DNA of 64,000 nt from Clostridia bacterium (GTDB taxonomy: Bacteria > Bacillota > Clostridia > UMGS1883). The stretch covers positions 77,483 to 141,482 of the forward strand of contig JAFUOO010000022.1 in assembly GCA_017472685.1 (NCBI GenBank). Direction: 5' to 3'. The translations under genes and the position numbers were made by a program. The notes under the pieces are model-generated. The model ran no database searches. It was not told where the DNA came from and worked only from the letters and a program-made list of their open reading frames with translations. This document shows positions 49,488 through 64,000 of this stretch, one piece after another (position 1 is the stretch's first letter; each line of letters starts with the position of its first letter).

Positions 49488-49560
49488 AATAACTGCTCCT
49501 TAATTGTACTGATAAAATTATATCATTGAATAACAGGAAATTCAATGATATAATTGTGTT

Positions 49561-50103
49561 ATGATAAAGCATATTATTTTAAACGGACGCAAAATTGAAT
49601 ACACCCTGCAGTATAAAAGTGTGAAAAACATAAATCTTCGCATCAAAGGTGATGGCAGTGTGCATGTTTCGGCAAACAGGAGGACACCGCTTGATGCCAT
49701 TGAAGATTTTATGCACAAAAAAGCACACCTGATACTGAAAGCCATTGACAATTGCCAAAAGAGTGAACTGAAAGAATATTTCACCGAGGATGACTTGAAA
49801 CGCTTTATACTGTTGTCTTGTGAACGGGTTTACCCATACTATGCAGAAAAAGGCATAGCAAAGCCCGAGGTTAAATTCCGCAAAATGGTTTCCAAATGGG
49901 GCTGCTGTAATATTACAAAGAAAACAATCACCTTTTCAACTAATCTCAAGTTTGCACCTGCCGAGTGTGTGATGTATGTAATATGGCACGAATTTACGCA
50001 CCTTTTGGTGCCAAACCATTCCAAGGCGTTTTACCTTGAGCTTGAAAAGGTGTGCCCCGATTGGAAAGGGTGCAGACAAAAGATGAAAGGGATAAAAATA
50101 TGA
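49561..50103 (+). CDS. YgjP-like (DUF45, M48-related) metal-dependent hydrolase
   Basis: VKNINLRIKGDG N-terminus and a C-terminal WHEFTHL HExxH motif. Confidence 0.6.
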   Translation: MIKHIILNGRKIEYTLQYKSVKNINLRIKGDGSVHVSANRRTPLDAIEDFMHKKAHLILKAIDNCQKSELKEYFTEDDLKRFILLSCERVYPYYAEKGIAKPEVKFRKMVSKWGCCNITKKTITFSTNLKFAPAECVMYVIWHEFTHLLVPNHSKAFYLELEKVCPDWKGCRQKMKGIKI

Positions 50104-50832: not shown

Positions 50833-52305
50833 ATGTCAAACATGTTGATACTTTCTATTACGAAAATCGGTGATTTACTGACTGAAAAAAGAATAACGAA
50901 AGACGAAAACGGACAACCAATAGATAATATTAATTTAGTCATACCCGAATATCAGCGCCCATATAAGTGGACCGCAAAAAATGTTAATCAGCTGCTGGAT
51001 GATATTATACAGGCAAAGAGTGAGAACAAGGAAGTATACCGCGTCGGAACACTCATTTTACATAAGGATAGAAACCGCGGAGAATACAATGTTGTGGACG
51101 GACAGCAACGAATAACAACCTTTGCATTGCTTCTGAAAGCATTGGGCGTTGGAAATGTTTCATTTCTTGAGCAGAAAATGACAGATAATCCCTATAACAG
51201 ATTTAACATTATCAATAACTATCGCACACTGAAGCGTCGTGTGGATAATTTGGCTGTTCAGAAGGGCGACCTTTGCAATTACATAAAAAACAATTGTGAA
51301 TTGATAGTTGTCATTACCGAAAATATTTCAGAGGCATTCCAATTTTTTGACTCCCAGAATGCACGCGGAAAAAAGCTATACCCACATGACCTCCTGAAAG
51401 CATACCATTTGCGGGAGATGAATGATTTGGATGCGGAGGAAACCGAAAAGATTGTTAAAACGTGGGAGGATTTAGACCAAAAAACACTTGCTGAGCTGTT
51501 TTCTGATTACTTATACCGTTTGAAAGAATGGATAAAGGGAAATAAGTCGGGTGAACTTAATGAGCACAATTATGATATGTTCAAGGGTGTAACGATGCAC
51601 GATAATTTTCCTTACGCACAGTTTTATAAAGGTGCATTTGCATACGCAGACAACATCAACAATTCGCCCATCCCGTTTGTTACGGGAATGCGTAAGCTCA
51701 GCGCTTTTCAGTTAGATACGCCTATTGTTGCCGGAAAACCGTTTTTTGACTATGCAAAACACTATTTTGAGCTTCTGGCGGATATAAGAAATAACGACAA
51801 ATACGAGGGGCATTTTATAAATGATAATAAAATAATGAAAACCTTAAATTTAAGGGAAAATCGCAATGGTGTAGGTAACACAATAGTAAGACGTATGCTT
51901 GACGCTGCCATACTTCTGTATATAGACAGATTCTGCCCTGAAAAGCCCACCGGCACAGATACCGAAATGCTTGACCAATTTGTAGTGTTTGCTTTTGTAT
52001 GGGCATACTCTCTCAGGGCACAATATCAAAATCTTGGTTGGCAAGCCGCTCAGAATTACATTATGGGAAACAATGGCAAAGTAACCAATTCGTTCAATCT
52101 TTATAAAGTCATAACAGAGAGCGATTCGCCCGTTGAACTTTTCAGCACACTTTCTGATAAAATTTTGCCACTGTCATATAATGATTTACCTGCATCCGAT
52201 AAGTACAGAGAAGCGAAAGTAGCAAATATAAACGAAAAAGATAAGAATGATGTTTATCAGAATTATCTTCATTTCTTCGTTGAGCATAATTTTTGGAGGG
52301 GATAA
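50833..52305 (+). CDS. DUF262 (ParB/GmrS-like NTPase) domain protein
   Basis: Hallmark motifs IPEYQRPYKW and DGQQRITT. Very low GC. Confidence 0.7.
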   Translation: MSNMLILSITKIGDLLTEKRITKDENGQPIDNINLVIPEYQRPYKWTAKNVNQLLDDIIQAKSENKEVYRVGTLILHKDRNRGEYNVVDGQQRITTFALLLKALGVGNVSFLEQKMTDNPYNRFNIINNYRTLKRRVDNLAVQKGDLCNYIKNNCELIVVITENISEAFQFFDSQNARGKKLYPHDLLKAYHLREMNDLDAEETEKIVKTWEDLDQKTLAELFSDYLYRLKEWIKGNKSGELNEHNYDMFKGVTMHDNFPYAQFYKGAFAYADNINNSPIPFVTGMRKLSAFQLDTPIVAGKPFFDYAKHYFELLADIRNNDKYEGHFINDNKIMKTLNLRENRNGVGNTIVRRMLDAAILLYIDRFCPEKPTGTDTEMLDQFVVFAFVWAYSLRAQYQNLGWQAAQNYIMGNNGKVTNSFNLYKVITESDSPVELFSTLSDKILPLSYNDLPASDKYREAKVANINEKDKNDVYQNYLHFFVEHNFWRG

Positions 52306-52307
52306 AA

Positions 52308-54359
52308 ATGAAAAATAAAGCATTGCCTCTTAAAGAGATTTCGGTTTCGGAATTGTATAACGGCAGCAACAAAATGATTTTTGAAGTGCCTGTTTATCAA
52401 AGAAATTACGCATGGGAAAAAGATGAAATATCCGCCCTGATCCAGGATGTATACGATGCCTGTATAAAGGGCTCGGATGTGTATTTCATCGGAACTCTCG
52501 TGACTTTTAATAAAGGTGATAATGTTTACGAGGTTATTGATGGTCAGCAGCGACTTACTACAATAAATCTTATTTTAAATGCCTTGCATATAAAGCCGAA
52601 CAACCCTCTCACGTATAAAGCACGAAAAAAATCAAATAACACAATAAAGCACATTCCATCCTTTGACATAGATGAAAAAGATCATGGCATTGTTAATGGC
52701 TTCAAGTATGCTGAAACATCGATAAACGAAAAAATTGCAAGTGATGATTTTGAAGCGTTTAAAACATATTTTCAAAACAATGTACACATCATTCATTACG
52801 AGGTCCCACGTGATATTGATTTGAATCATTATTTTGAGATAATGAATTCCCGCGGCGAACAGCTTGAAAAACACGAAATTGTAAAAGCACGTTTAATAAG
52901 CTATATAAAAAATGATTACGATAAAAGCACATTTAATTTTATATGGGAATGCTGCTCGGAAATGGGTGTATACGTACAGCAAAAATATAAGGAAAAAGAC
53001 GTTTTCGGACCTGATTTGTGTGAACTTATTGTCGATGCGTTTGAGCAGCTGCCTTTCACTAAAAAAGATTCCGAAGAACAGCTTTCCATTAATGCATTGA
53101 TTGAAAGCGAAGCTAAGTACGAATTGAAAAATCCTAACATATCAGATGACAAGCCCGATTCCTTTCAGCCTGTTATTGATTTTCAGAATTTCTTGCTGAT
53201 AGTTCTTAAAATAACAAGAATAACTAATGAGCATAATTTTAATCCCATCAGCTTTAACCTTGACGACAAAGAACTGATTAATGAATTTGAGAAAGTAGCC
53301 TGTGATAATTATGGCGGAAAGGAAAGCTTTGCAAAAAACTTTGCTTACAACTTATTAAAAATAAAATATCTGCTTGATAATTATGTGGTGCATCATTCCA
53401 ATGAGGAAGACACTATCGAAAACAACCCATGGAAGCTGCAGTATTGGCAGTATAATACTGATAAGAAAAAAGGTCCTCTCAGGTCATTGTGTAGTGATGA
53501 AGAGTTGCAACACAAGCTTGTGCAGCTGTTGTCCATGTTTGAGGTGTCATTTACTGCCCGACAAAGAAAAAATTATTTATTTTATTGCCTGCTGTTTTTG
53601 TTTGAAAAATATAATTCCCATACTTACGATGAAGACCTTTTGCCTGAATACGGGAATTTTGTGGAAGCTCTGGCAAAAAAATATTTTTGTGATGTTTATT
53701 TAGTTGAGGATAAACTGAATAATATCAACACGCCCAAGCCGGGCAGCTTTGACGAGGTTGTTTTATGTAATAATAAACTCAATGTGATAGCTGATAATCT
53801 GAACATCCATGTTTTTGAAAAAATTTACGGTGACGGAACTGTAGCCTCGAAAGGTGTACCGTTGTTTATTTTTAACTATCTGGACTATAAACTGTGGGAA
53901 TATTATGCAGAAAATCTGCGCGGTGAAAAACTGAAAGAAAAAAGTCCCGCACGTCGGGAGTTCTTTAACGAACTGGGGTGTAGCGATTTTGGACTTGATG
54001 TTTTTAATCAGTTTTATTTTTCAAGAACAAGGAGGAGCCTGGAGCACTACTATCCTCAGGCAAATATTACGAATTCAACCATGGATGATAATCAGATTAA
54101 TTGTTTGGGTAACTATGCAATGATAGGCAGTGCAATAAACAGCGCCGGTTCAAATTGGAGCCCAAAAACAAAATTAGACTGTTATCTGGACACATCGGGG
54201 AAAATAAAACAGGTTAGCGTAGCTTCGTTAAAGTTTATGATTATGATGCAAAAATGTAAGGATGAAGACAGAAAAGGTGAGAGAAATCCGGGGTGCGAAT
54301 GGATATTTGAGGACATAAAGGAACACCAGAAAAAAATGCTGAAATTTTTTGAAAAGTAA
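52308..54359 (+). CDS. DUF262-DUF1524 (GmrSD-like) protein with C-terminal His-Me-finger nuclease
   Basis: PVYQRNYAW and DGQQRLTT N-terminally. C-terminally SLEHYYPQ...N...GN is a DUF1524/HNH-like motif. ATG with GGAGGGG ribosome-binding site. Confidence 0.7.
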   Translation: MKNKALPLKEISVSELYNGSNKMIFEVPVYQRNYAWEKDEISALIQDVYDACIKGSDVYFIGTLVTFNKGDNVYEVIDGQQRLTTINLILNALHIKPNNPLTYKARKKSNNTIKHIPSFDIDEKDHGIVNGFKYAETSINEKIASDDFEAFKTYFQNNVHIIHYEVPRDIDLNHYFEIMNSRGEQLEKHEIVKARLISYIKNDYDKSTFNFIWECCSEMGVYVQQKYKEKDVFGPDLCELIVDAFEQLPFTKKDSEEQLSINALIESEAKYELKNPNISDDKPDSFQPVIDFQNFLLIVLKITRITNEHNFNPISFNLDDKELINEFEKVACDNYGGKESFAKNFAYNLLKIKYLLDNYVVHHSNEEDTIENNPWKLQYWQYNTDKKKGPLRSLCSDEELQHKLVQLLSMFEVSFTARQRKNYLFYCLLFLFEKYNSHTYDEDLLPEYGNFVEALAKKYFCDVYLVEDKLNNINTPKPGSFDEVVLCNNKLNVIADNLNIHVFEKIYGDGTVASKGVPLFIFNYLDYKLWEYYAENLRGEKLKEKSPARREFFNELGCSDFGLDVFNQFYFSRTRRSLEHYYPQANITNSTMDDNQINCLGNYAMIGSAINSAGSNWSPKTKLDCYLDTSGKIKQVSVASLKFMIMMQKCKDEDRKGERNPGCEWIFEDIKEHQKKMLKFFEK

Positions 54360-54931: not shown

Positions 54932-54945
54932 AATTCCACAAAACA

Positions 54946-54978
54946 AAAGACAGCACCTTTTGGTACTGTCTTTTGTTT
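54946..54978 (+). terminator. rho-independent terminator (imperfect stem)
   Basis: aaagacagcaccttttggtactgtcttttgtttt. Confidence 0.65.
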
Positions 54979-54999
54979 TGTGGCGGAGAAGGTGGGATT
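54972..54999 (-). repeat. attachment-site-like direct repeat copy 1 (tRNA 3'-end core plus flank)
   Basis: tttgttttgtggcggagaaggtgggatt is repeated at 55074-55102. Confidence 0.6.
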
Positions 55000-55073: not shown

Positions 55074-55130
55074 TTGTTTTTTGTGGCGGAGAAGGTGGGA
55101 TTCGAACCCACGTCCCTCGGGGGGCATCAT
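55074..55130 (-). other. tRNA 3'-end fragment (T-arm, acceptor 3' strand, G discriminator, CCA) = attachment-site direct repeat copy 2; no complete cloverleaf
   Basis: The minus-strand sequence reads ...GGGACGTGGGTTCGAATCCCACCTTCTCCGCCA. The T-loop TTCGAAT is canonical. No matching 5' acceptor strand or D-arm could be found upstream on that strand. Confidence 0.55.
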
Positions 55131-55367
55131 GATTTCGAGTGATATACACTCTGACTTTCTTAATCGTTTCTACAATCTGATATAACTCTCTTGAAAGAGC
55201 TGAAAACCTGGAAAAATAAGGGTTTTTGGCTCTTTTTTGTGTGCTTAAGACTTGATTTTTGTGGCTTTTGAAAAATGTGATTTTAACACAAAAAATTCAC
55301 TTTGGGCAAAACTAGGGCAAAACAGATTTATACTTAAAAACCATTAAAACGTATGAAAGGGCACATT

Positions 55368-55643
55368 ATGAAAACGAAATGGAAGGAATTTTGCGAAGCT
55401 TGGCTTGCTGACGAGCCTGATATATTAACCGTGCTTGAAGTCAAACGTATCACAGGCTATTGCAAAAGCTCGGTGCAAGGCTGGATTGACAGAGGACTTG
55501 TTGTTGCCTTTCGGGCAAAACGGTCAAATAAAATTCCCAGGTCATCGCTGCTCAAATTTATGGCAAGTGATTATTTTCGCAATATGCACGTTAAATCAAA
55601 AAAGCTGAAGGAAAAATTAAGTGAGTTTGAAAGGATGGATTGA
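55368..55643 (+). CDS. excisionase/HTH-type DNA-binding protein
   Basis: VKRITGYCKSSVQGWIDRGLV resembles an HTH_17/Xis-like helix-turn-helix. Confidence 0.45.
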   Translation: MKTKWKEFCEAWLADEPDILTVLEVKRITGYCKSSVQGWIDRGLVVAFRAKRSNKIPRSSLLKFMASDYFRNMHVKSKKLKEKLSEFERMD

Positions 55644-55646
55644 TTT

Positions 55647-55997
55647 ATGAGGGTTGATTATATCAAATACGGAAGGGGCTATTTGCCCACTGCAGCACCG
55701 AAGGAGAGCTATGATATTTGCAGATTCGGACACGCATATTTAAGCTACTTAAAGCAAAATAAACGAGTATTATATTCACGGTTATTGATTACCGGAAGGC
55801 TTTTAAAGCATGTTGCACACGTGGATAAACTGGCCCGGCAGATGTACGATGATATCATTCGTGACAGAATTGGAGATGCACCGCCCAGAGAAAACCAGAA
55901 GGAATGGGACGAGTTTATAAATAGACTTCGCAATAGTGCCGAGAAAATCGTGTATAAGGAAATTCTTTTCAAAGATGAAAGAATCAGAGAGGTGTAA
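55647..55997 (+). CDS. hypothetical protein (116 aa)
   Basis: ORF within the island operon. Confidence 0.35.
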   Translation: MRVDYIKYGRGYLPTAAPKESYDICRFGHAYLSYLKQNKRVLYSRLLITGRLLKHVAHVDKLARQMYDDIIRDRIGDAPPRENQKEWDEFINRLRNSAEKIVYKEILFKDERIREV

Positions 55998-56004
55998 GAA
56001 AACC

Positions 56005-56814
56005 ATGAGAATAGCATACCCAATCGGATTTACACAAATACCCAATTACATACTACGCAGCAAGGTGTTAAAGCCCTTGCAAAAGGTCGTGCTTGCCGTT
56101 TTGTGTAGCTATGCCAATGATGAAAATCTCGCATTCCCGTCTTACCAGACTATTGCAAATGACAGCGGAATCAGCAGAAGAAAAGCCATTGAGATTATTG
56201 GTGACTTGGAAAGGCTTGGTTGCATCAGAAAGATTGCACAGAAAAGCACTAAGGGCGATAATACCGCCAATGATTATGTAGTTCTGATAGGTGGTGCAGA
56301 TTTTGCACTACCCGGTGAATCTCCTGCACTACCTGGTGAATATGGTGCACCACCCTGTGGTGAATCTCCTGCACCACGTGGTGAACGTCGTGCACCCAAT
56401 CAATATATAGATAATAATATTAATATTTATTTTAATAATAACCATCAATCCATCACGGCTGCCGAGATGGATGAGATGGAAGAACAAATCAAAGAAAATA
56501 TTGATTATACGATTTTGAAACAGAGCTATACAGACGGTATGCTTGAAGAAATTGTCAGCGTAATGGTAGAAGCTACTTGCGCTACTGCTACGACGATTCG
56601 TATTGGAGACAACGAATTTCCGCGAGAGGTTGTTAAAGCCCAAATGCTGAAGCTCGGCAGCGAGCATGTGGAGTATGTAATCGATTGCATCAAGAAAAAC
56701 ACTACCAAGGTACGAAACATAAAAGCCTATATGCTAAGGTGCATTTACAACGCTCCGCAGACCATAGCCCACTACTACACCGCAGAGGTGAATCACGATT
56801 TGTACGGCGGATAG
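56005..56814 (+). CDS. replication initiator / replisome organiser (N-terminal HTH, C-terminal DnaD-like domain) with internal Pro/Gly-rich tandem repeat
   Basis: The N-terminus (FPSYQTIANDSGISRRKAIEII) is a Rep-type winged helix. The C-terminus (KAQMLKLGSEHVEYVIDCIKKN...KAYMLRCI) is DnaD-like. DNA repeats lie at about 56290-56400. Confidence 0.55.
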   Translation: MRIAYPIGFTQIPNYILRSKVLKPLQKVVLAVLCSYANDENLAFPSYQTIANDSGISRRKAIEIIGDLERLGCIRKIAQKSTKGDNTANDYVVLIGGADFALPGESPALPGEYGAPPCGESPAPRGERRAPNQYIDNNINIYFNNNHQSITAAEMDEMEEQIKENIDYTILKQSYTDGMLEEIVSVMVEATCATATTIRIGDNEFPREVVKAQMLKLGSEHVEYVIDCIKKNTTKVRNIKAYMLRCIYNAPQTIAHYYTAEVNHDLYGG

Positions 56815-56925
56815 CTCAGAGCTGTAAAACGATAGTTTTTGTATTAGCAAGCACGGCATTTGTATAGACAAAAGCCGCTTGTTAGGGATAATCCCTAATA
56901 CCCATTTGTTATTGGAGGTGGAACT

Positions 56926-57243
56926 ATGAGATACAAGCAAAAGCAATTAAATTTTTATGTTTCTGATAAGGTGTGGGAAAAACTTCAAAAATTGAAAAAG
57001 AAATCAGGCTTAACTATGACAGCGATAATATCAAAACTTATCATGGGTTACGAAATTCATCCTCTTAAAACTGAAGAGCTTTTTAGAATATACAAAGAGC
57101 TGAACCATATAGGCAATAACATAAATCAAATTGCTCATATCGCCAATTTGGAAAAACATGTGTCTAAAGAAAAAATTAGCGAGGTAGAAAAGCTTATGGA
57201 CCAAATATGGGAATGTGTCTTAAGCTACGATGAGAAGAAATGA
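56926..57243 (+). CDS. MobC-like mobilisation accessory protein (no cognate relaxase present)
   Basis: About 105 aa with YKELNHIGNNINQIAHIAN, typical of MobC / Bacterial_mobilisation. Confidence 0.55.
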   Translation: MRYKQKQLNFYVSDKVWEKLQKLKKKSGLTMTAIISKLIMGYEIHPLKTEELFRIYKELNHIGNNINQIAHIANLEKHVSKEKISEVEKLMDQIWECVLSYDEKK

Positions 57244-57391
57244 TTATGAGCTTTGAAAAAACTGTATTACGAAAATCTAAATTCTGGCGAAAAACAGATT
57301 GGATGAGCGTATTTATAACCTTGAAAAAAGTTGACACAGAAAAAGAAATGTATATAATAAATTACAGAAGCTTTTTATTTTCCAAGGAGTT

Positions 57392-57604
57392 ATGATTATG
57401 AGTAAAGAAGGAAAGTTTTTAGTTTTTTGTATTGAACAATATAAGTCGGCCAAAAATTTAACAGGAAAACAGGTTGCAGAATTGTTCAGGAAGTATGAAG
57501 TATATGAATATATTTTTAGTTGCTACGGAGCGTTGCATACTACAGGAACAAACTATATTATTGCAGATATAGACTTATTTATCGAGGCACGACAAGCAGG
57601 CTGA
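57392..57604 (+). CDS. small hypothetical protein (DUF3791-like)
   Basis: 70-aa ORF with a GGAG ribosome-binding site. Confidence 0.4.
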   Translation: MIMSKEGKFLVFCIEQYKSAKNLTGKQVAELFRKYEVYEYIFSCYGALHTTGTNYIIADIDLFIEARQAG

Positions 57605-57799
57605 TAAAATTTAATTATGATAAACAATGAGGTTATGCACGTGAGAGCATAACCTCGTTTTTGTTGGTTTAAGCTTATAGGACTTTATGCTGATGATAAC
57701 GCGAAAGCCAATTAGTCAATCGTGAATTACTCATTTATACTTGACTAAATTGCTTTGTATGTGCTATACTATAGATAACCAAAAATGGAGGTCATACAT

Positions 57800-59194
57800 A
57801 TGTTTATTGGCAGAGAACGCGAGCTTAATGCTCTGAATAAACTTTATGAATCGAATAAATTTGAATTTGCTGTTATCTATGGCAGACGTCGTGTTGGTAA
57901 AACTGCGCTCATAAATGAGTTCATAGGCGATAAAAAAGCTATTTACTTTATGGGCGTTGAAAGCAACGCAAAGCAGAATCTTGAAAACTTTTCAAAAAGT
58001 ATTATGGAGTTTGCAAGCGGTATTGAAACGGAGTCCTCTTTCCTTTCTTTTCAGGCTGCATTAGAGTATGTTTTTAAGCTTGCAGAGAACGAAAGAATAA
58101 TCCTTGCTATTGACGAATACCCTTACGTGGCTCGTTCATCAAAAAGCCTTGCATCTACCTTACAGCTTTTAATTGATAAATATAAAGATAACTCAAAGTT
58201 GATGCTCATTCTCTGCGGTTCCTCTATGTCATACATGGAAGACCACGTGCTTGCATACAAAGCACCCTTATACGGTCGCAGAACGGCTCAAATGAAGCTT
58301 TTGCCATTTGACTTTGAAGAAACTTGCCGATATTTCAAAAACCTTTCTGACGAGGATAAGGCGCTTATTTACGGTATAGCAGGCGGTACGCCTCAGTACC
58401 TTTTGCAGATGGATGACAATTTAAGCGTTGAGGATAATATCAAAAACACATACTTGAATCCGATTTCATTCCTTTACGAAGAACCGACTAACCTTTTAAA
58501 ACAAGAGGTTCGTGAGCCTGCAATTTATACAGCTATCATTACAGCGATTGCAACAGGTTCATCAAGAATGTCGGAGATTTCAAGCAAGGTTGGCGAAGAT
58601 ACTAATGTTTGCACAAATTACATTAAGAACCTTATGAACCTTGGTATTGTGCAAAAGGAAACTCCCTACGGAGAAAAGGCTTCTCGTAAGTCGATTTACT
58701 CTATTGAGGATAATATGTTCCGTTTCTGGTATCGCTTTGTGCTTGATAATAATTCAATCATTGCCCGTGGTGCTGCTGATCTGGTTTATAAGAGAATTGA
58801 GCCTCAGCTTTCAGACTATATGGGTAAGGTTTTTGAAGAAATCTGTAAGCAGTACCTTTGGAAACAGCTTCTTTCAGGCAACTGCCCGGTAGAGTTCACT
58901 TCCCTTGGTCGTTGGTGGGGCAACGATCCTACAGAAAAATGCCAGGCAGAAATCGATATTATGGGCGAACAGGACAAAAACACAGCCCTCTTTGCAGAAT
59001 GCAAATGGACAAATGAAAAGGTTGACCTTGGCGTTTTAGAAACACTTGTAAAACGCGGCAATCTGTTCCCGTATAAAACAAAGCATTATTACCTGTTCTC
59101 AAAATCCGGATTTTCAAAGGGATGTGTGGATAAAGCGAATGAAATGGGTAATGTGAGTTTGGTAAATTATCGAGATATGGTGGAGGAAAAATAA
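57800..59194 (+). CDS. AAA-type ATPase of the COG1672 family with DUF234 C-terminal domain
   Basis: MFIGRERELNAL...YGRRRVGKTAL Walker A, and a conserved C-terminus. ATG at 57800. Confidence 0.6.
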   Translation: MFIGRERELNALNKLYESNKFEFAVIYGRRRVGKTALINEFIGDKKAIYFMGVESNAKQNLENFSKSIMEFASGIETESSFLSFQAALEYVFKLAENERIILAIDEYPYVARSSKSLASTLQLLIDKYKDNSKLMLILCGSSMSYMEDHVLAYKAPLYGRRTAQMKLLPFDFEETCRYFKNLSDEDKALIYGIAGGTPQYLLQMDDNLSVEDNIKNTYLNPISFLYEEPTNLLKQEVREPAIYTAIITAIATGSSRMSEISSKVGEDTNVCTNYIKNLMNLGIVQKETPYGEKASRKSIYSIEDNMFRFWYRFVLDNNSIIARGAADLVYKRIEPQLSDYMGKVFEEICKQYLWKQLLSGNCPVEFTSLGRWWGNDPTEKCQAEIDIMGEQDKNTALFAECKWTNEKVDLGVLETLVKRGNLFPYKTKHYYLFSKSGFSKGCVDKANEMGNVSLVNYRDMVEEK

Positions 59195-59279
59195 GATGGG
59201 ATAGTTAAGCTATAACTAATGGATTTGGAGATTTCTTTAAGATAATCATTTAAAAAAATAAACAAAAGGAGAATGAATT

Positions 59280-61310
59280 ATGCGTTTAATTAAAGCACGA
59301 GTACAAGGATATCGAAGTATAATTGATACAGGGTATTTTGAAGTGGAAAATGACAAAACAATTTTGGTTGGACCAAACGAAGCGGGAAAAACCGCAATTT
59401 TGCAAGCGTTACAAAAACTTAATCCTCCGGAAGGGGTTGCGTTATTTGATCCTTTGAGAGATTATCCTCGTTCTAAATATGATGAGGATATTAAAAACGG
59501 CAATATTGATTCTAGCACATTTACTGTAGTAGAAGGTCATTTTGCTTTGGAAGATGACGATAGAGATGAATTGCCAGAAGCCTACAAGGATGTTATTTAT
59601 GTCTGCGGACGATACTTAGATAATACAATGTGGCATCGACTGGATAACGCACCATCAAAACTTATTTTTTCTGAAATTGAAAAGGATTTATTGAAGATTT
59701 GTCAACATTACAAAAATACAAGCGTGGCAAATGGAGACCCAGAAGCCAAGCAGGTAGCTATACAAACTGGGTATGATACTGCAGTTTTATATCTTCGCAG
59801 GACAAGTGTTATCTCTAGCGTTAAGGCAAAACAAATCACTACTTGGTTGAAAAACAATTTAGTATATCTTGAAGATGATAATGCAACAGAAGAAAAGAGG
59901 TATGAAAAACTTCTTGAACTATTGGAAAAACCTATAGAACGCAATGATGTTCTTACAATTTGCGAAGAGAGATTACCTAAATTTATACTTTTTAGTAATT
60001 ATTTTAGAATTAAGCCAGTGTTGCATTTGAAGAAGTTAGCAGAACGCATCGACAAAAAAATGTTGGATGATGAACAGTATGACTACGGAAATATATGTTT
60101 GCTTAAATTTTTAGGGTTTACTCCCAAAGAACTTGCAGAAGCAGGCGAAACTTCAAAATATGATCTGAATAAACCGGATCAGTACGAGCAATATCGAGCG
60201 CAATTAGACAAAAGAGATTATCAACTAAATGCTGCTACTATTAGGCTTACAGATGCAATTTGTGAAATTTGGAATCCAAAAAAAGATGGGCGAGACGCAA
60301 ATAAGCTTAGAATTAAGGTTGATGGACAATATCTCAAGGTTGTTGTTGAAGACGATTTGGGTGTAGAAGTAGAACTTGATCAGCGTTCTGAAGGTTTCCA
60401 ATGGATGGTATCATTCTATGTTGTGTTCTTCGCAGAGGCATCTGATAAACATAAAAATGCAATTTTATTGTTAGATGAACCGGGTCAAAGTTTACATGCT
60501 CTTAAACAAGCAGAGTTTATTGAAACATTGACAAAATTGAGTAAGAAAAACCAAACATTGTATACTACACATTCCCCATTCCTTGTTGGGACAGATGAAC
60601 TTGATAAGGTCCGTGTTGTTGAGATGACAGATAGAACAACCGGTACAAAAGTAAATTTGTCGTTAACGGCTAGCGATAGTGGTGCAATGCTTCCATTACA
60701 AGAAGCGTTAGGCTACGATTTGGCGCAAAGTTTATTCTTCCATAAAAAGAACCTCGTTCTTGAAGGATTGACTGACATGTGGTATATAGAAAGTTTATCA
60801 GAGTTGTTTAAGGCCGATGGAAAAACTGGGATTAACGAACAAATTGCATTAATTCCTGCTAACTGCGCGAGCAAGGTAGTATATTTTGCAACAATTCTGC
60901 ACGCACAAAATCTTAAAATTTCGGCACTTTTGGATTCGGATGCAGAGGGAGAATTGGCGGCGAAACAAGAGACATTAATTAACGCAGTAGGTGCTAAGCG
61001 TATCCTAAGGACAAAGGATGTTTACAGTGGACAAGTATCTGCTGTTGAAATTGAGGATATACTTAGGGATACATTGTTGAATATCGCAAAAGATCAATGC
61101 GGTTGGGATGCTATAGCTGTTGCTAAAACACAAGCAAAACGTCCAATTGTAGATGTTTTAAAGAGTGTAGCAAAAGCTGATTTTTCTAAGTATAAGTTAT
61201 CTAAAGCTTTTATAAGATGGTCTCGGGATCACGGATTAAACGATTTACAACCTCATGAAATTGCACAGGCAGGACAACTTATAGAAAAGATTAACAAATC
61301 TCTTCAGTAA
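59280..61310 (+). CDS. OLD-family nuclease: ABC-type ATPase fused to a TOPRIM domain (stand-alone, class-1-like)
   Basis: N-terminal Walker A GPNEAGKT, and an ABC signature/Walker B region (LLLDEPGQSLH). C-terminal TOPRIM (LVLEGLTDMWYIE...DSDAEG). Confidence 0.7.
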   Translation: MRLIKARVQGYRSIIDTGYFEVENDKTILVGPNEAGKTAILQALQKLNPPEGVALFDPLRDYPRSKYDEDIKNGNIDSSTFTVVEGHFALEDDDRDELPEAYKDVIYVCGRYLDNTMWHRLDNAPSKLIFSEIEKDLLKICQHYKNTSVANGDPEAKQVAIQTGYDTAVLYLRRTSVISSVKAKQITTWLKNNLVYLEDDNATEEKRYEKLLELLEKPIERNDVLTICEERLPKFILFSNYFRIKPVLHLKKLAERIDKKMLDDEQYDYGNICLLKFLGFTPKELAEAGETSKYDLNKPDQYEQYRAQLDKRDYQLNAATIRLTDAICEIWNPKKDGRDANKLRIKVDGQYLKVVVEDDLGVEVELDQRSEGFQWMVSFYVVFFAEASDKHKNAILLLDEPGQSLHALKQAEFIETLTKLSKKNQTLYTTHSPFLVGTDELDKVRVVEMTDRTTGTKVNLSLTASDSGAMLPLQEALGYDLAQSLFFHKKNLVLEGLTDMWYIESLSELFKADGKTGINEQIALIPANCASKVVYFATILHAQNLKISALLDSDAEGELAAKQETLINAVGAKRILRTKDVYSGQVSAVEIEDILRDTLLNIAKDQCGWDAIAVAKTQAKRPIVDVLKSVAKADFSKYKLSKAFIRWSRDHGLNDLQPHEIAQAGQLIEKINKSLQ

Positions 61311-61312
61311 AC

Positions 61313-61355
61313 AAAAATAGAAGGTAGGTGTGTTTTACCTACCTTCTATTTTTGT
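61313..61355. terminator. strong bidirectional terminator
   Basis: aaaaatagaaggtaggtgtgttttacctaccttctattttt. Confidence 0.85.
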
Positions 61356-61363
61356 TTACTATA

Positions 61364-62305
61364 CTATCTGAATTCATCAAGCCAGGCTTGGAATTGCTCG
61401 AGGGTGATTTCACCGTTATAGCATTTTTTTCGTTCTGCACGGGCGAGCTTACCGAATTCTTTGAATTCTTCCTTTGTGATGAGCTTTGCTCTCTGACGGG
61501 AATCCATACGACGATAAGCCGTGATGTAGGCTTTGTGGATTGCATCATCTTTATGAACAATATCAAAGGTTTTAATTGCGCCGATTTCGCTACAAGGCTT
61601 TGTTTCACCTGACATAATTCTTTCGCAGTATTCGCTGTTTACACGACCACGGGGGATAAAATATTCACCGCAGCATTTACAGGGCTTAAGCTTAATCTTA
61701 TTTACAAGCATAAGCATTATATCAAAGCGGATTACATCGTCTATTGTTTCAAGGGGATAGACTGTGATGCCATTATCTGCATCAAATTGAGTTACAAAAT
61801 CAAAATTAAACAGCTTGCTCTCTTCACGGTGCTTTGTAAAGCGCTGAGGAAGAGAGCCTTCTTTATCTTTAATAATTTCATCTAACAATGGTTTGATTTC
61901 TGTCTTTTTCTTATGGATGCTTACGAGTATCGCATTAAGAAATTTTTCAAAATACTTTTTAGAGCCTTCTTCGGGTGCAATAAAATCACTTCCAAGGAAG
62001 GTTATAAATTCACTGCTACCGTTAGCAAGATAATCAATGAAAGAAGCAATATATATGGTCAAATAGCTGTTCTTGTCAACATAAGCAGCAGCTTTCTTGA
62101 CTGCCTGTTCTATGTCTCCGCCACCGAATGCAATAATTATATCAATGAAAATCAGTCTGAACATTTCGGTGTCAATCCAAAGAAAGTCAAAAAGAGCCTT
62201 GCCGGAGGTTGTGCCGACAACGGTTTCTTCTATCTGATCAAATTTTAACTTATATGAGGTCTGGTTGCCATTGGCAAAGCCAAAGATTTTTGTATTTTCT
62301 TTCAT
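61364..62305 (-). CDS. hypothetical protein with Cys cluster (CKCCG...C...C)
   Basis: The ORF extends to 62380. The preferred start is MKENTK at 62305, with a GAGGA ribosome-binding site. Confidence 0.4.
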   Translation of the reverse strand: MKENTKIFGFANGNQTSYKLKFDQIEETVVGTTSGKALFDFLWIDTEMFRLIFIDIIIAFGGGDIEQAVKKAAAYVDKNSYLTIYIASFIDYLANGSSEFITFLGSDFIAPEEGSKKYFEKFLNAILVSIHKKKTEIKPLLDEIIKDKEGSLPQRFTKHREESKLFNFDFVTQFDADNGITVYPLETIDDVIRFDIMLMLVNKIKLKPCKCCGEYFIPRGRVNSEYCERIMSGETKPCSEIGAIKTFDIVHKDDAIHKAYITAYRRMDSRQRAKLITKEEFKEFGKLARAERKKCYNGEITLEQFQAWLDEFR

Positions 62306-62529
62306 AATACATCCTCTTGATAAACGATTATAAATAATTCCTGAAAGTATTATATCGCGTCGTTTTTGAAAAGTCAACACAAATGCATAAAACGATTATT
62401 TGAAAACAAATTTTGAATAAACTTGACAAGCGTTGGGCGGTATGGTACACTATGAACGACGATAAGAAAAAATAAGTATAATAATCGCCAGAAACGCAAA
62501 CTAAGAATAACTAATGAGGAGGTGAAATC

Positions 62530-62724
62530 ATGAATGTATTAAACTATACACAAAAATTAAAGCATTATCCTGATGTGCTGACTACCGATCAGGCGGCTGA
62601 AATTCTTAATGTCAGCAAGAAAACGATTTATATGGCAATTAAAAACAAGGAACTACACGCTGTAAAAATTGGACGAGAATACAGGATAGTAAAAGCAAAG
62701 CTTGTTGAAATGCTGGTATCGTAA
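62530..62724 (+). CDS. excisionase-family HTH protein
   Basis: LTTDQAAEILNVSKKTIYMAIKNKEL is a classic Xis/MerR-type HTH. It lies directly upstream of int. Confidence 0.6.
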   Translation: MNVLNYTQKLKHYPDVLTTDQAAEILNVSKKTIYMAIKNKELHAVKIGREYRIVKAKLVEMLVS

Positions 62725-62732
62725 GAGGGTGA

Positions 62733-63929
62733 GTGTTTTTGAAAAAAGAAATTAAGGTTTCCGGACATCTGGAGGTTATCAAGGGCGTTTACCATATGAA
62801 GCTATCTTGGGTGTCTGCAGAGGGTAAGCGACAGAGAAAATCAAAAAGCACGAATTTACCTGAACGAGGAAACAAAAAGCGAGCGCATGATATGCTGATT
62901 GATTTTCAGCGTGAGCAAGAGGCAGAGCTTATAGCTAACGGAAACGGAATAAAGGATATACTTTTCACCGATTATTTGAAGCAATGGCTTGAAAAGACCA
63001 AACTACAAATCCGCCTTACTACCTACAGTGGTTATCATGATAATATACACGGGGTAATAATTCCATACTTTGAGCCCATGAAGCTTAAGCTTAGAGAGGT
63101 TACTCCGAAGCATATTCAGGATTTTTATACGAATCAAAGAAAGCGTGTAAAAGGAACAACGGTCAAAAGCTATCATGCAAATATTCATAAGGCATTTAAG
63201 GATGCAAGGAAGCTACAGCTTATAGACTCAAACCCTATGGAATGTGTAGATCCACCCAAAAAGGAACCCTATCATGGTCAGACCTACACCGTTGAGGAGG
63301 CACAAAAAATACTTGCATTAGTAAGTGATACTATTTATGAAATACCTATAACCGTGATGCTGTTTTACGGTCTTCGTCGTGAGGAGGCAATCGGGCTTAA
63401 GTGGCAGAACATTGATTTTGAAAGCAATACTTTTTTGATTGCACATACTGTAACCGAAACAAGTATCGATGGACGCCTGCAGGTGATTAAAGAGGATTTG
63501 ACTAAAAACAACAGCAGCTACCGTTCACTTCCGTTGGTGCCTCCTGTTAGGGAGCTGCTTTTAGAAAAGAAGCAAAGCATTCGGGAATACAGAAAGCTTT
63601 TCAGAAAAGGTTATTGCTTCAAGGATTCGGATTATGTCTGTGTGAATGAGCTTGGTGAGTTAATCAGACCGAGAACCCTGTCGGATAACTTCAAAAGAAT
63701 TATTCGCAAGAACAGGCTCAGAACTTTAAGATTATACGATTGCAGACATACTGCGGCGAGCATAATGTTGAAAAACGGTGTCAATATGAAGCAGATTCAA
63801 ATGATACTGGGACACAGTGATTTTGCGACAACTGCAAATATTTATTCTCACCTTGATTATTCCGATAAAATATCAGCAGCAGAAAAAATGAGAAATATAA
63901 TCTACGGTGAAGATAATGAATCGGTTTAG
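62733..63929 (+). CDS. tyrosine site-specific integrase
   Basis: N-terminal SAM-like domain. The catalytic domain has R (GLRREEA), HxxR (CRHTAAS) and a C-terminal Y (ANIYSHLDY). The exact start is uncertain (GTG/TTG). Confidence 0.85.
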   Translation: MFLKKEIKVSGHLEVIKGVYHMKLSWVSAEGKRQRKSKSTNLPERGNKKRAHDMLIDFQREQEAELIANGNGIKDILFTDYLKQWLEKTKLQIRLTTYSGYHDNIHGVIIPYFEPMKLKLREVTPKHIQDFYTNQRKRVKGTTVKSYHANIHKAFKDARKLQLIDSNPMECVDPPKKEPYHGQTYTVEEAQKILALVSDTIYEIPITVMLFYGLRREEAIGLKWQNIDFESNTFLIAHTVTETSIDGRLQVIKEDLTKNNSSYRSLPLVPPVRELLLEKKQSIREYRKLFRKGYCFKDSDYVCVNELGELIRPRTLSDNFKRIIRKNRLRTLRLYDCRHTAASIMLKNGVNMKQIQMILGHSDFATTANIYSHLDYSDKISAAEKMRNIIYGEDNESV

Positions 63930-64000
63930 GGCAAATCGAGGCAAATTTGGGCAAAACAAGCCCTGTTTTAGATAAAGTAAATGCGGGCTTGCAACATAGC

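Follow-up and report, generated by a model that had tools for sequence, protein, structure and literature searches.

The 64,000-nucleotide window analysed here, from contig JAFUOO010000022.1 of a Clostridia bacterium, contains a pair of adjacent plus-strand genes, A and B, that we examined as a candidate two-subunit restriction system of the kind known from Vibrio cholerae as TgvAB. Gene A (tgvA-like; 50833–52305) is an open reading frame of 490 codons whose product would be the DUF262-only partner subunit, ending in a DUF7834 domain and carrying no nuclease domain. Gene B (tgvB-like; 52308–54359) codes for 683 residues comprising a DUF262 domain, a helical linker and a predicted DUF1524-type His-Me finger nuclease. 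Its reading frame opens from 52293, and we place the likely start at the ATG at 52308 because the resulting N-terminus, MKxKTLPLKE, is that of the orthologues. A stops with TAA at 52303–52305, leaving an intergenic gap of 2 nt, and a Shine-Dalgarno sequence for B, GGAGGGG at 52295–52301, lies within the 3′ end of A with a spacer of 6 nt to the ATG. Both proteins have the length expected of their families: A falls within the 483–500 residues of its orthologues and B within 660–687 residues. An independent metagenome assembly holds an identical copy of the A–B locus.

An earlier note on this DNA, made from the letters alone, had read (I/P)xYQRxYxW and DGQQR motifs in both proteins, an EHxxPQ...N motif at the C-terminus of B, and coupling of the genes through the ribosome-binding site inside A's end. 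These readings were borne out. The translation of A contains IPEYQRPYKW and VDGQQR; that of B contains VPVYQRNYAW, IDGQQR and SLEHYYPQAN…GNYAMIGSAINSAGSN, giving EH..PQ…GN…N…N; and the position of the GGAGGGG predicts that A and B are translationally coupled.

Protein A begins with a DUF262/GmrSD_N domain, a ParB-like NTPase/sensor (residues 32–192, 50926–51408; Pfam, 108 bits), in which Q41-R42, D89-G90-Q91-Q92-R93 and F171..N176 are invariant in 40 orthologues. The remainder is largely occupied by a domain overlooked by the earlier note, the TgvA-specific region DUF7834 (Pfam PF25202; residues 204–447, 51442–52173; 194 bits). Similarly, residues 1–399 of V. cholerae TgvA matched GmrSD_N at 102 bits and DUF7834 at 132 bits in Pfam. 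Because V. cholerae TgvA itself scores on DUF7834 in this way, GmrSD_N followed by DUF7834 can be taken as the signature of TgvA, and A carries it. Profile comparison found no homology between the DUF7834 region of A and the region of B that follows its DUF262 domain (hhalign probability 0.1%, from shallow profiles with an effective sequence number, Neff, of 1.7), leaving the idea that TgvA is a mere nuclease-less copy of TgvB unsupported at that profile depth. AlphaFold2 models of both proteins were built from 40-sequence alignments of low diversity (61–80% identity); the model of A had a predicted TM-score (pTM) of 0.65 and a predicted local distance difference test (pLDDT) score below 50 at residues 229–327, and DUF7834 was not characterised by it.

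Protein B likewise opens with a DUF262/GmrSD_N domain (residues 14–196, 52347–52895; Pfam, 120 bits), and the columns of Q31-R32, D78-G79-Q80-Q81-R82 and F176..N180 are invariant in 40 orthologues; the GmrSD_N scores of both proteins are well above anything expected by chance. Towards its C-terminus, a sub-threshold match to PF07510 delimits a DUF1524/GmrSD_C-like candidate nuclease domain at residues ~535–679 (53910–54344). Within it we recognised, from conservation among TgvB-type proteins, a His-Me finger core of E579-H580-x2-P583 … G601-N602 … N611 … N616 (54042–54155). E579, H580, N602 and N611 are each present in 46 of 46 TgvB-type proteins, which reach down to ~26–30% identity, and N616 in 44 of them. 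H580 and N611 are separated by 31 residues, the same spacing as between H571 and N602 of TgvB. A scan of the whole proteins against NCBIfam gave no informative match.

TgvAB, encoded on Vibrio pathogenicity island 2 (VPI-2) of V. cholerae, comprises TgvA (VC1767), with DUF262 only, and TgvB (VC1766), with DUF262 plus DUF1524; both genes are needed for defence and neither works alone, mutation of DGQQR in either protein abolishes defence, as does H571A or N602A in TgvB, and the system restricts T-even phages carrying glucosyl- or arabinosyl-5-hydroxymethylcytosine (5hmC) (PMC11411939, PMC11014532). We compared A and B by BLASTP with the proteins listed in Table S5 of PMC11411939, using the first ~400 residues of each as reference. 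A matched V. cholerae TgvA at 26% identity over 378 residues (E = 6e-24, 93 bits, as against 58 bits for TgvB), and B matched TgvB at 26% identity over 387 residues (E = 4e-28, 106 bits, as against 55 bits for TgvA). Much closer were CAG37104 and CAG37103 of Desulfotalea psychrophila, 72% identical to A over 400 residues and 60% identical to B over 418 residues, respectively, which that table gives as a TgvAB hit (PMC11411939). We consider it very probable that the pair is a standalone, two-subunit, GmrSD-like modification-dependent (type IV) restriction enzyme of the TgvAB family, a reading that retains the type IV candidate of DUF262 plus DUF262-DUF1524 genes proposed earlier and narrows it to one family.

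Homologues of both proteins number in the thousands, and those at ≥60% identity are spread over Clostridia, Bacteroidota, Proteobacteria, Desulfobacterota and other groups; within the clade, identity of ≥60% extends over Bacillota, Bacteroidota, Pseudomonadota, Desulfobacterota and Actinomycetota. Both proteins keep roughly 53–75% identity in five phyla or more, compared with ~26% to V. cholerae TgvAB; identity this tight across phyla would imply a recent and wide horizontal spread of the clade. The degree of conservation is unusual for a defence gene (the comparison included loci L009, L011, L013, L046 and P0034/P0049/P0102/P0116).

We then asked how often the two genes occur together in reference genomes, one per species, counting as full-length B-type genes those open reading frames that contain the middle and C-terminal regions of B. 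An A-type gene lay directly upstream on the same strand at 42 of 45 full-length B-type genes, and this A-then-B pairing held for the clade at ≥50% identity as well as for that at ~30%. The weaker matches (L065–L087) were single GmrSD-like genes of ~600 residues with no partner. In close relatives, whose A proteins are 73–76% identical to ours, the A and B genes overlap by 4 nt, and their flanks, which hold ion transport genes, glycosidases, or a transposase plus Type I restriction–modification (R-M) genes, are unrelated to those of the present locus. Because the flanking genes of close relatives are unrelated, A–B appears to be a self-contained two-gene cassette. At four loci in the reference genomes (L046, Candidatus Accumulibacter contiguus; L049, Neisseria flavescens; L030, Aeromonas molluscorum; and L042) the pair is split into several open reading frames; these appear to be pseudogenes, which would point to recurrent decay of the system.

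Several observations weigh against placing the pair in the TgvAB family. The validated V. cholerae proteins are only ~26% identical to A and B over the first ~400 residues. Pfam found no DUF1524/GmrSD_C match on full-length B at E ≤ 0.1, and the C-terminal 227 residues taken alone reached 19.3 bits against PF07510 (E = 1.1e-3), under the gathering cutoff of 23. For B, the AlphaFold2 model (pTM 0.67) has pLDDT below 50 at residues 568–602, over the His-Me finger, so that the ββα-Me fold proposed for B comes from the sequence and is not confirmed by the structural model. Finally, no homologue of HsdR, HsdM or HsdS was found in the 64-kb window, whereas the type example is embedded among Type I R-M genes. 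This last feature is not a defining one for the TgvAB family, because 1,341 tgvAB-operon hits are reported as against 79 for the five-gene cluster embedded in Type I R-M (PMC11411939) and hsd homologues lay close to only 9 of the 52 loci that we surveyed.

The nuclease domain bears closer inspection. The search of Pfam profiles suggested in the earlier note returned DUF262 in both proteins and, on full-length B, no DUF1524, nominally the outcome that the note had named as refuting its proposal. However, the alignment of the isolated C-terminus spans profile positions 9–137 of 138, and, scanned one by one, 37 of 40 B orthologues (61–75% identity) match GmrSD_C, the best at E = 1.8e-8. Because the isolated C-terminus aligns, these orthologues match and all 46 TgvB-type proteins keep the catalytic residues unchanged, the nuclease domain would be a feature of the family, with its predicted catalytic residues intact in the present copy of B. 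The missed DUF1524 then looks like an issue of sensitivity, this copy merely scoring below the Pfam threshold; more generally, Pfam can overlook the nuclease domain in single members of the TgvAB family.

The alternative that survives best, while still improbable, is that B is a self-sufficient single-chain type IV enzyme similar to GmrSD, HEC-06 or BrxU and that A is an unrelated, adjoining DUF262 protein acting alone. The DUF262-linker-nuclease layout of B is indeed that of a complete single-chain GmrSD, and the top PADLOC matches of both proteins were single-gene HEC-06 models (112 and 100 bits), but PADLOC matches were mostly limited to the N-terminal ~80–100 residues. Against this alternative, an A-type gene directly precedes the B-type gene at 42 of 45 loci across phyla, while the single-chain relatives of ~600 residues have no such partner; A and B of the present locus are predicted to be translationally coupled; and in the V. 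cholerae system neither gene works alone.

Structure and profile searches raised a second alternative, a phosphorothioate (PT)-sensing effector similar to SspE or DndI that would rely on PT modification by the host. In Foldseek searches of the PDB, the nearest chains to B were those of SspE (E ~3e-6) and the nearest to A those of SspE and DndI, with PDB sequence searches in agreement, so that, of the solved structures, SspE and DndI (9JFL) come nearest in sequence and in fold; PADLOC SspE models also matched both proteins (E 1e-13 to 1e-14). This similarity is confined to the common DUF262 domain, and SspE and DndI each consist of one protein, of different length (771 and 596 residues). Moreover, the neighbouring genes include no ssp or dnd modification genes, and the flanks differ in every relative examined, so that no conserved modification partner accompanies the pair. 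We therefore hold a PT-sensing effector to be very unlikely.

Even less credence attaches to the pair being a GrwAB-type system, another combination of two DUF262 proteins, one with DUF1524, in which both are needed. GrwAB encodes its nuclease protein first, whereas the DUF262-only protein comes first here, and the C-terminus of GrwB is long, multi-domain and described as distinct from TgvA, whereas A carries DUF7834 as TgvA does. Just as implausible is a locus in decay that has ceased to function and whose B nuclease domain has degenerated, for which the sub-threshold GmrSD_C score of B and the pseudogenised pairs at L046, L049, L030 and L042 could be cited, but neither open reading frame is shortened compared with orthologues, every invariant NTPase and His-Me residue is preserved, and an independent metagenome assembly carries an identical copy.

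If the pair is a TgvAB-family enzyme, A and B would act together, probably as a complex, by analogy with TgvAB, BrxU and SspE. Binding and hydrolysis of nucleoside triphosphates by both DUF262 domains, through their DGQQR motifs, would license the one nuclease domain of the pair, that of B, to cut incoming phage DNA with hypermodified bases while sparing unmodified host DNA. We infer complex formation, modification dependence and the modification recognised from these better-known systems. The clade to which the pair belongs is only ~26% identical to V. cholerae TgvAB, yet strongly conserved across phyla. We suggest tentatively that its target may be some hypermodified base different from glucosyl- and arabinosyl-5hmC; in that case, DUF7834 could set the specificity or guard against phage anti-restriction proteins.

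The guanine–cytosine (GC) content of the pair (A, 0.379; B, 0.356; the block, 0.365) is lower than that of the neighbouring RibD_C-like (0.425) and flavin-reductase (0.462) genes and of the window (0.414), and the block falls within the lowest 2.5% of 3.5-kb segments by GC. The dip described earlier is therefore real, but at this size it is moderate and not the 'far' lower value that had been claimed. The cassette looks horizontally acquired. Its neighbours are a YgjP-like gene, the RibD_C and flavin-reductase genes and ABC transporters. YgjP-like metallopeptidase genes are frequently found alongside Type I R-M loci; the one found here (DUF45/WLM-type; 49561–50103) is the second gene upstream of the pair. 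We rejected the YgjP-like, RibD_C and flavin-reductase genes as functional partners of A and B, since close relatives have entirely different flanking genes. A search for an empty site, made in metagenome contigs with the upstream RibD_C-like protein as query, returned a single 3-kb contig of different context and was uninformative.

Same-strand neighbour genes are tightly spaced, and the only good promoter-like site in a consensus scan, 49526–49554, lies upstream of the YgjP-like gene. A hairpin with a 20-bp stem, at 54936–54983 on the 3′ side of the flavin-reductase gene, was picked up as terminator-like by consensus match only and likely forms the end of the transcription unit containing the pair. 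Judging from these consensus scans, the pair may be read through from a host operon.

Roughly 600 nt downstream of the pair, beyond the flavin-reductase gene, lie two attachment-site (att)-like repeats, TTTTGT..GTGGCGGAGAAGGTGGGATT, at 54971–54999 and 55074–55102, which are the reverse complement of a transfer RNA (tRNA) or transfer-messenger RNA (tmRNA) 3′ end. The two are direct copies 103 nt apart, each a hairpin followed by a tRNA-3′-end fragment, and beyond ...GGGATT the first diverges, a pattern suggestive of two integrations in succession at one site, with the older element almost wholly lost. Rfam gave a weak tmRNA 3′-end match at the att-like fragment, and folding of the fragment was not significant. 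ARAGORN detected no intact tRNA in the window, and we therefore place the target gene of the element probably beyond 64000. The tRNA-end fragments, their orientation and the position of the integrase put the element to the right of 55.08 kb, and on these grounds we rejected the pair as cargo of the att-bounded element. The attachment-site remnants noticed beside the block are thus real, but they bound a neighbouring element: on their right begins a separate integrative mobilisable element (55074–64000), outside which the pair lies.

This element contains an HTH_17 xis-like gene (55353–55643), TnpV (55647–55997), an HTH_36+DUF6017 Rep-like gene (55936–56814), NikA/MobC (56926–57243), a DUF3791 gene, a minus-strand DUF6076 gene (61364–62380) and a tyrosine integrase (62733–63929). 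The HTH_36/DUF6017 gene includes four tandem repeats of 21–24 nt (56293–56396) encoding a PGESPA/PGEYGA-like peptide linker. Defence-like cargo occupies 57785–61310, where the gene for an ATPase_2+DUF234 protein (PADLOC candidate PDC-S27, 223 bits) precedes that for an OLD-family AAA_15+TOPRIM nuclease (PADLOC Old, 83 bits; AriA and GajA weaker). Together with the TgvAB-like pair, the PDC-S27-like and OLD-family genes would form a small defence neighbourhood.

As an ordinary, intact member of an already described family, the pair leaves the current understanding of TgvAB unchanged. What it offers is a specific annotation, TgvAB-family type IV restriction, for genes labelled 'DUF262 domain-containing protein' in databases, with DUF262 plus DUF7834 serving in practice to recognise the TgvA partner. 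The almost universal linkage of A followed by B lends support to the published obligate action of two proteins and widens it to distant clades, and conservation across phyla makes this clade convenient for biochemical and structural work on the role of the second DUF262 subunit.

Set beside known systems, the pair most resembles V. cholerae TgvAB. The two have in common the A-then-B order with tight coupling, a first protein of DUF262 plus DUF7834 and a second of DUF262 and linker (followed by DUF1524 in TgvB and by a sub-threshold DUF1524-like region in B), the motifs QR, DGQQR and FxxxN in both proteins, and 31 residues between the catalytic H and N. They differ in that identity is ~26%, placing the pair in a different clade; in that the pair has a 2-nt intergenic gap where the V. 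cholerae genes overlap by 8 bp; and in that V. cholerae TgvAB sits inside a Type I R-M operon and the pair does not. Single-chain GmrSD enzymes (Eco94GmrSD, BrxU/HEC-05 and HEC-06) have their layout and motifs in common with B, but they act alone, whereas B is preceded by a linked DUF262+DUF7834 gene; B is also ~100 residues longer than HEC-06 or BrxU, with similarity concentrated in the N-terminal domain. SspE and DndI (PDB 6JIV, 7DRR and 9JFL) resemble the pair in their DUF262 NTPase domain and in an effector logic of the DUF1524/HNH kind, but they are coupled to PT-modification clusters, and the pair has no such cluster among its neighbours. GrwAB, from VSP-II (Vibrio seventh pandemic island II) of West African–South American (WASA) V. 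cholerae, is reported to act over a wider range, which takes in 7-deazaguanine-modified DNA (PMC12137116); published descriptions of its gene order, GrwB C-terminus and range, and not sequence, set the pair apart from it.

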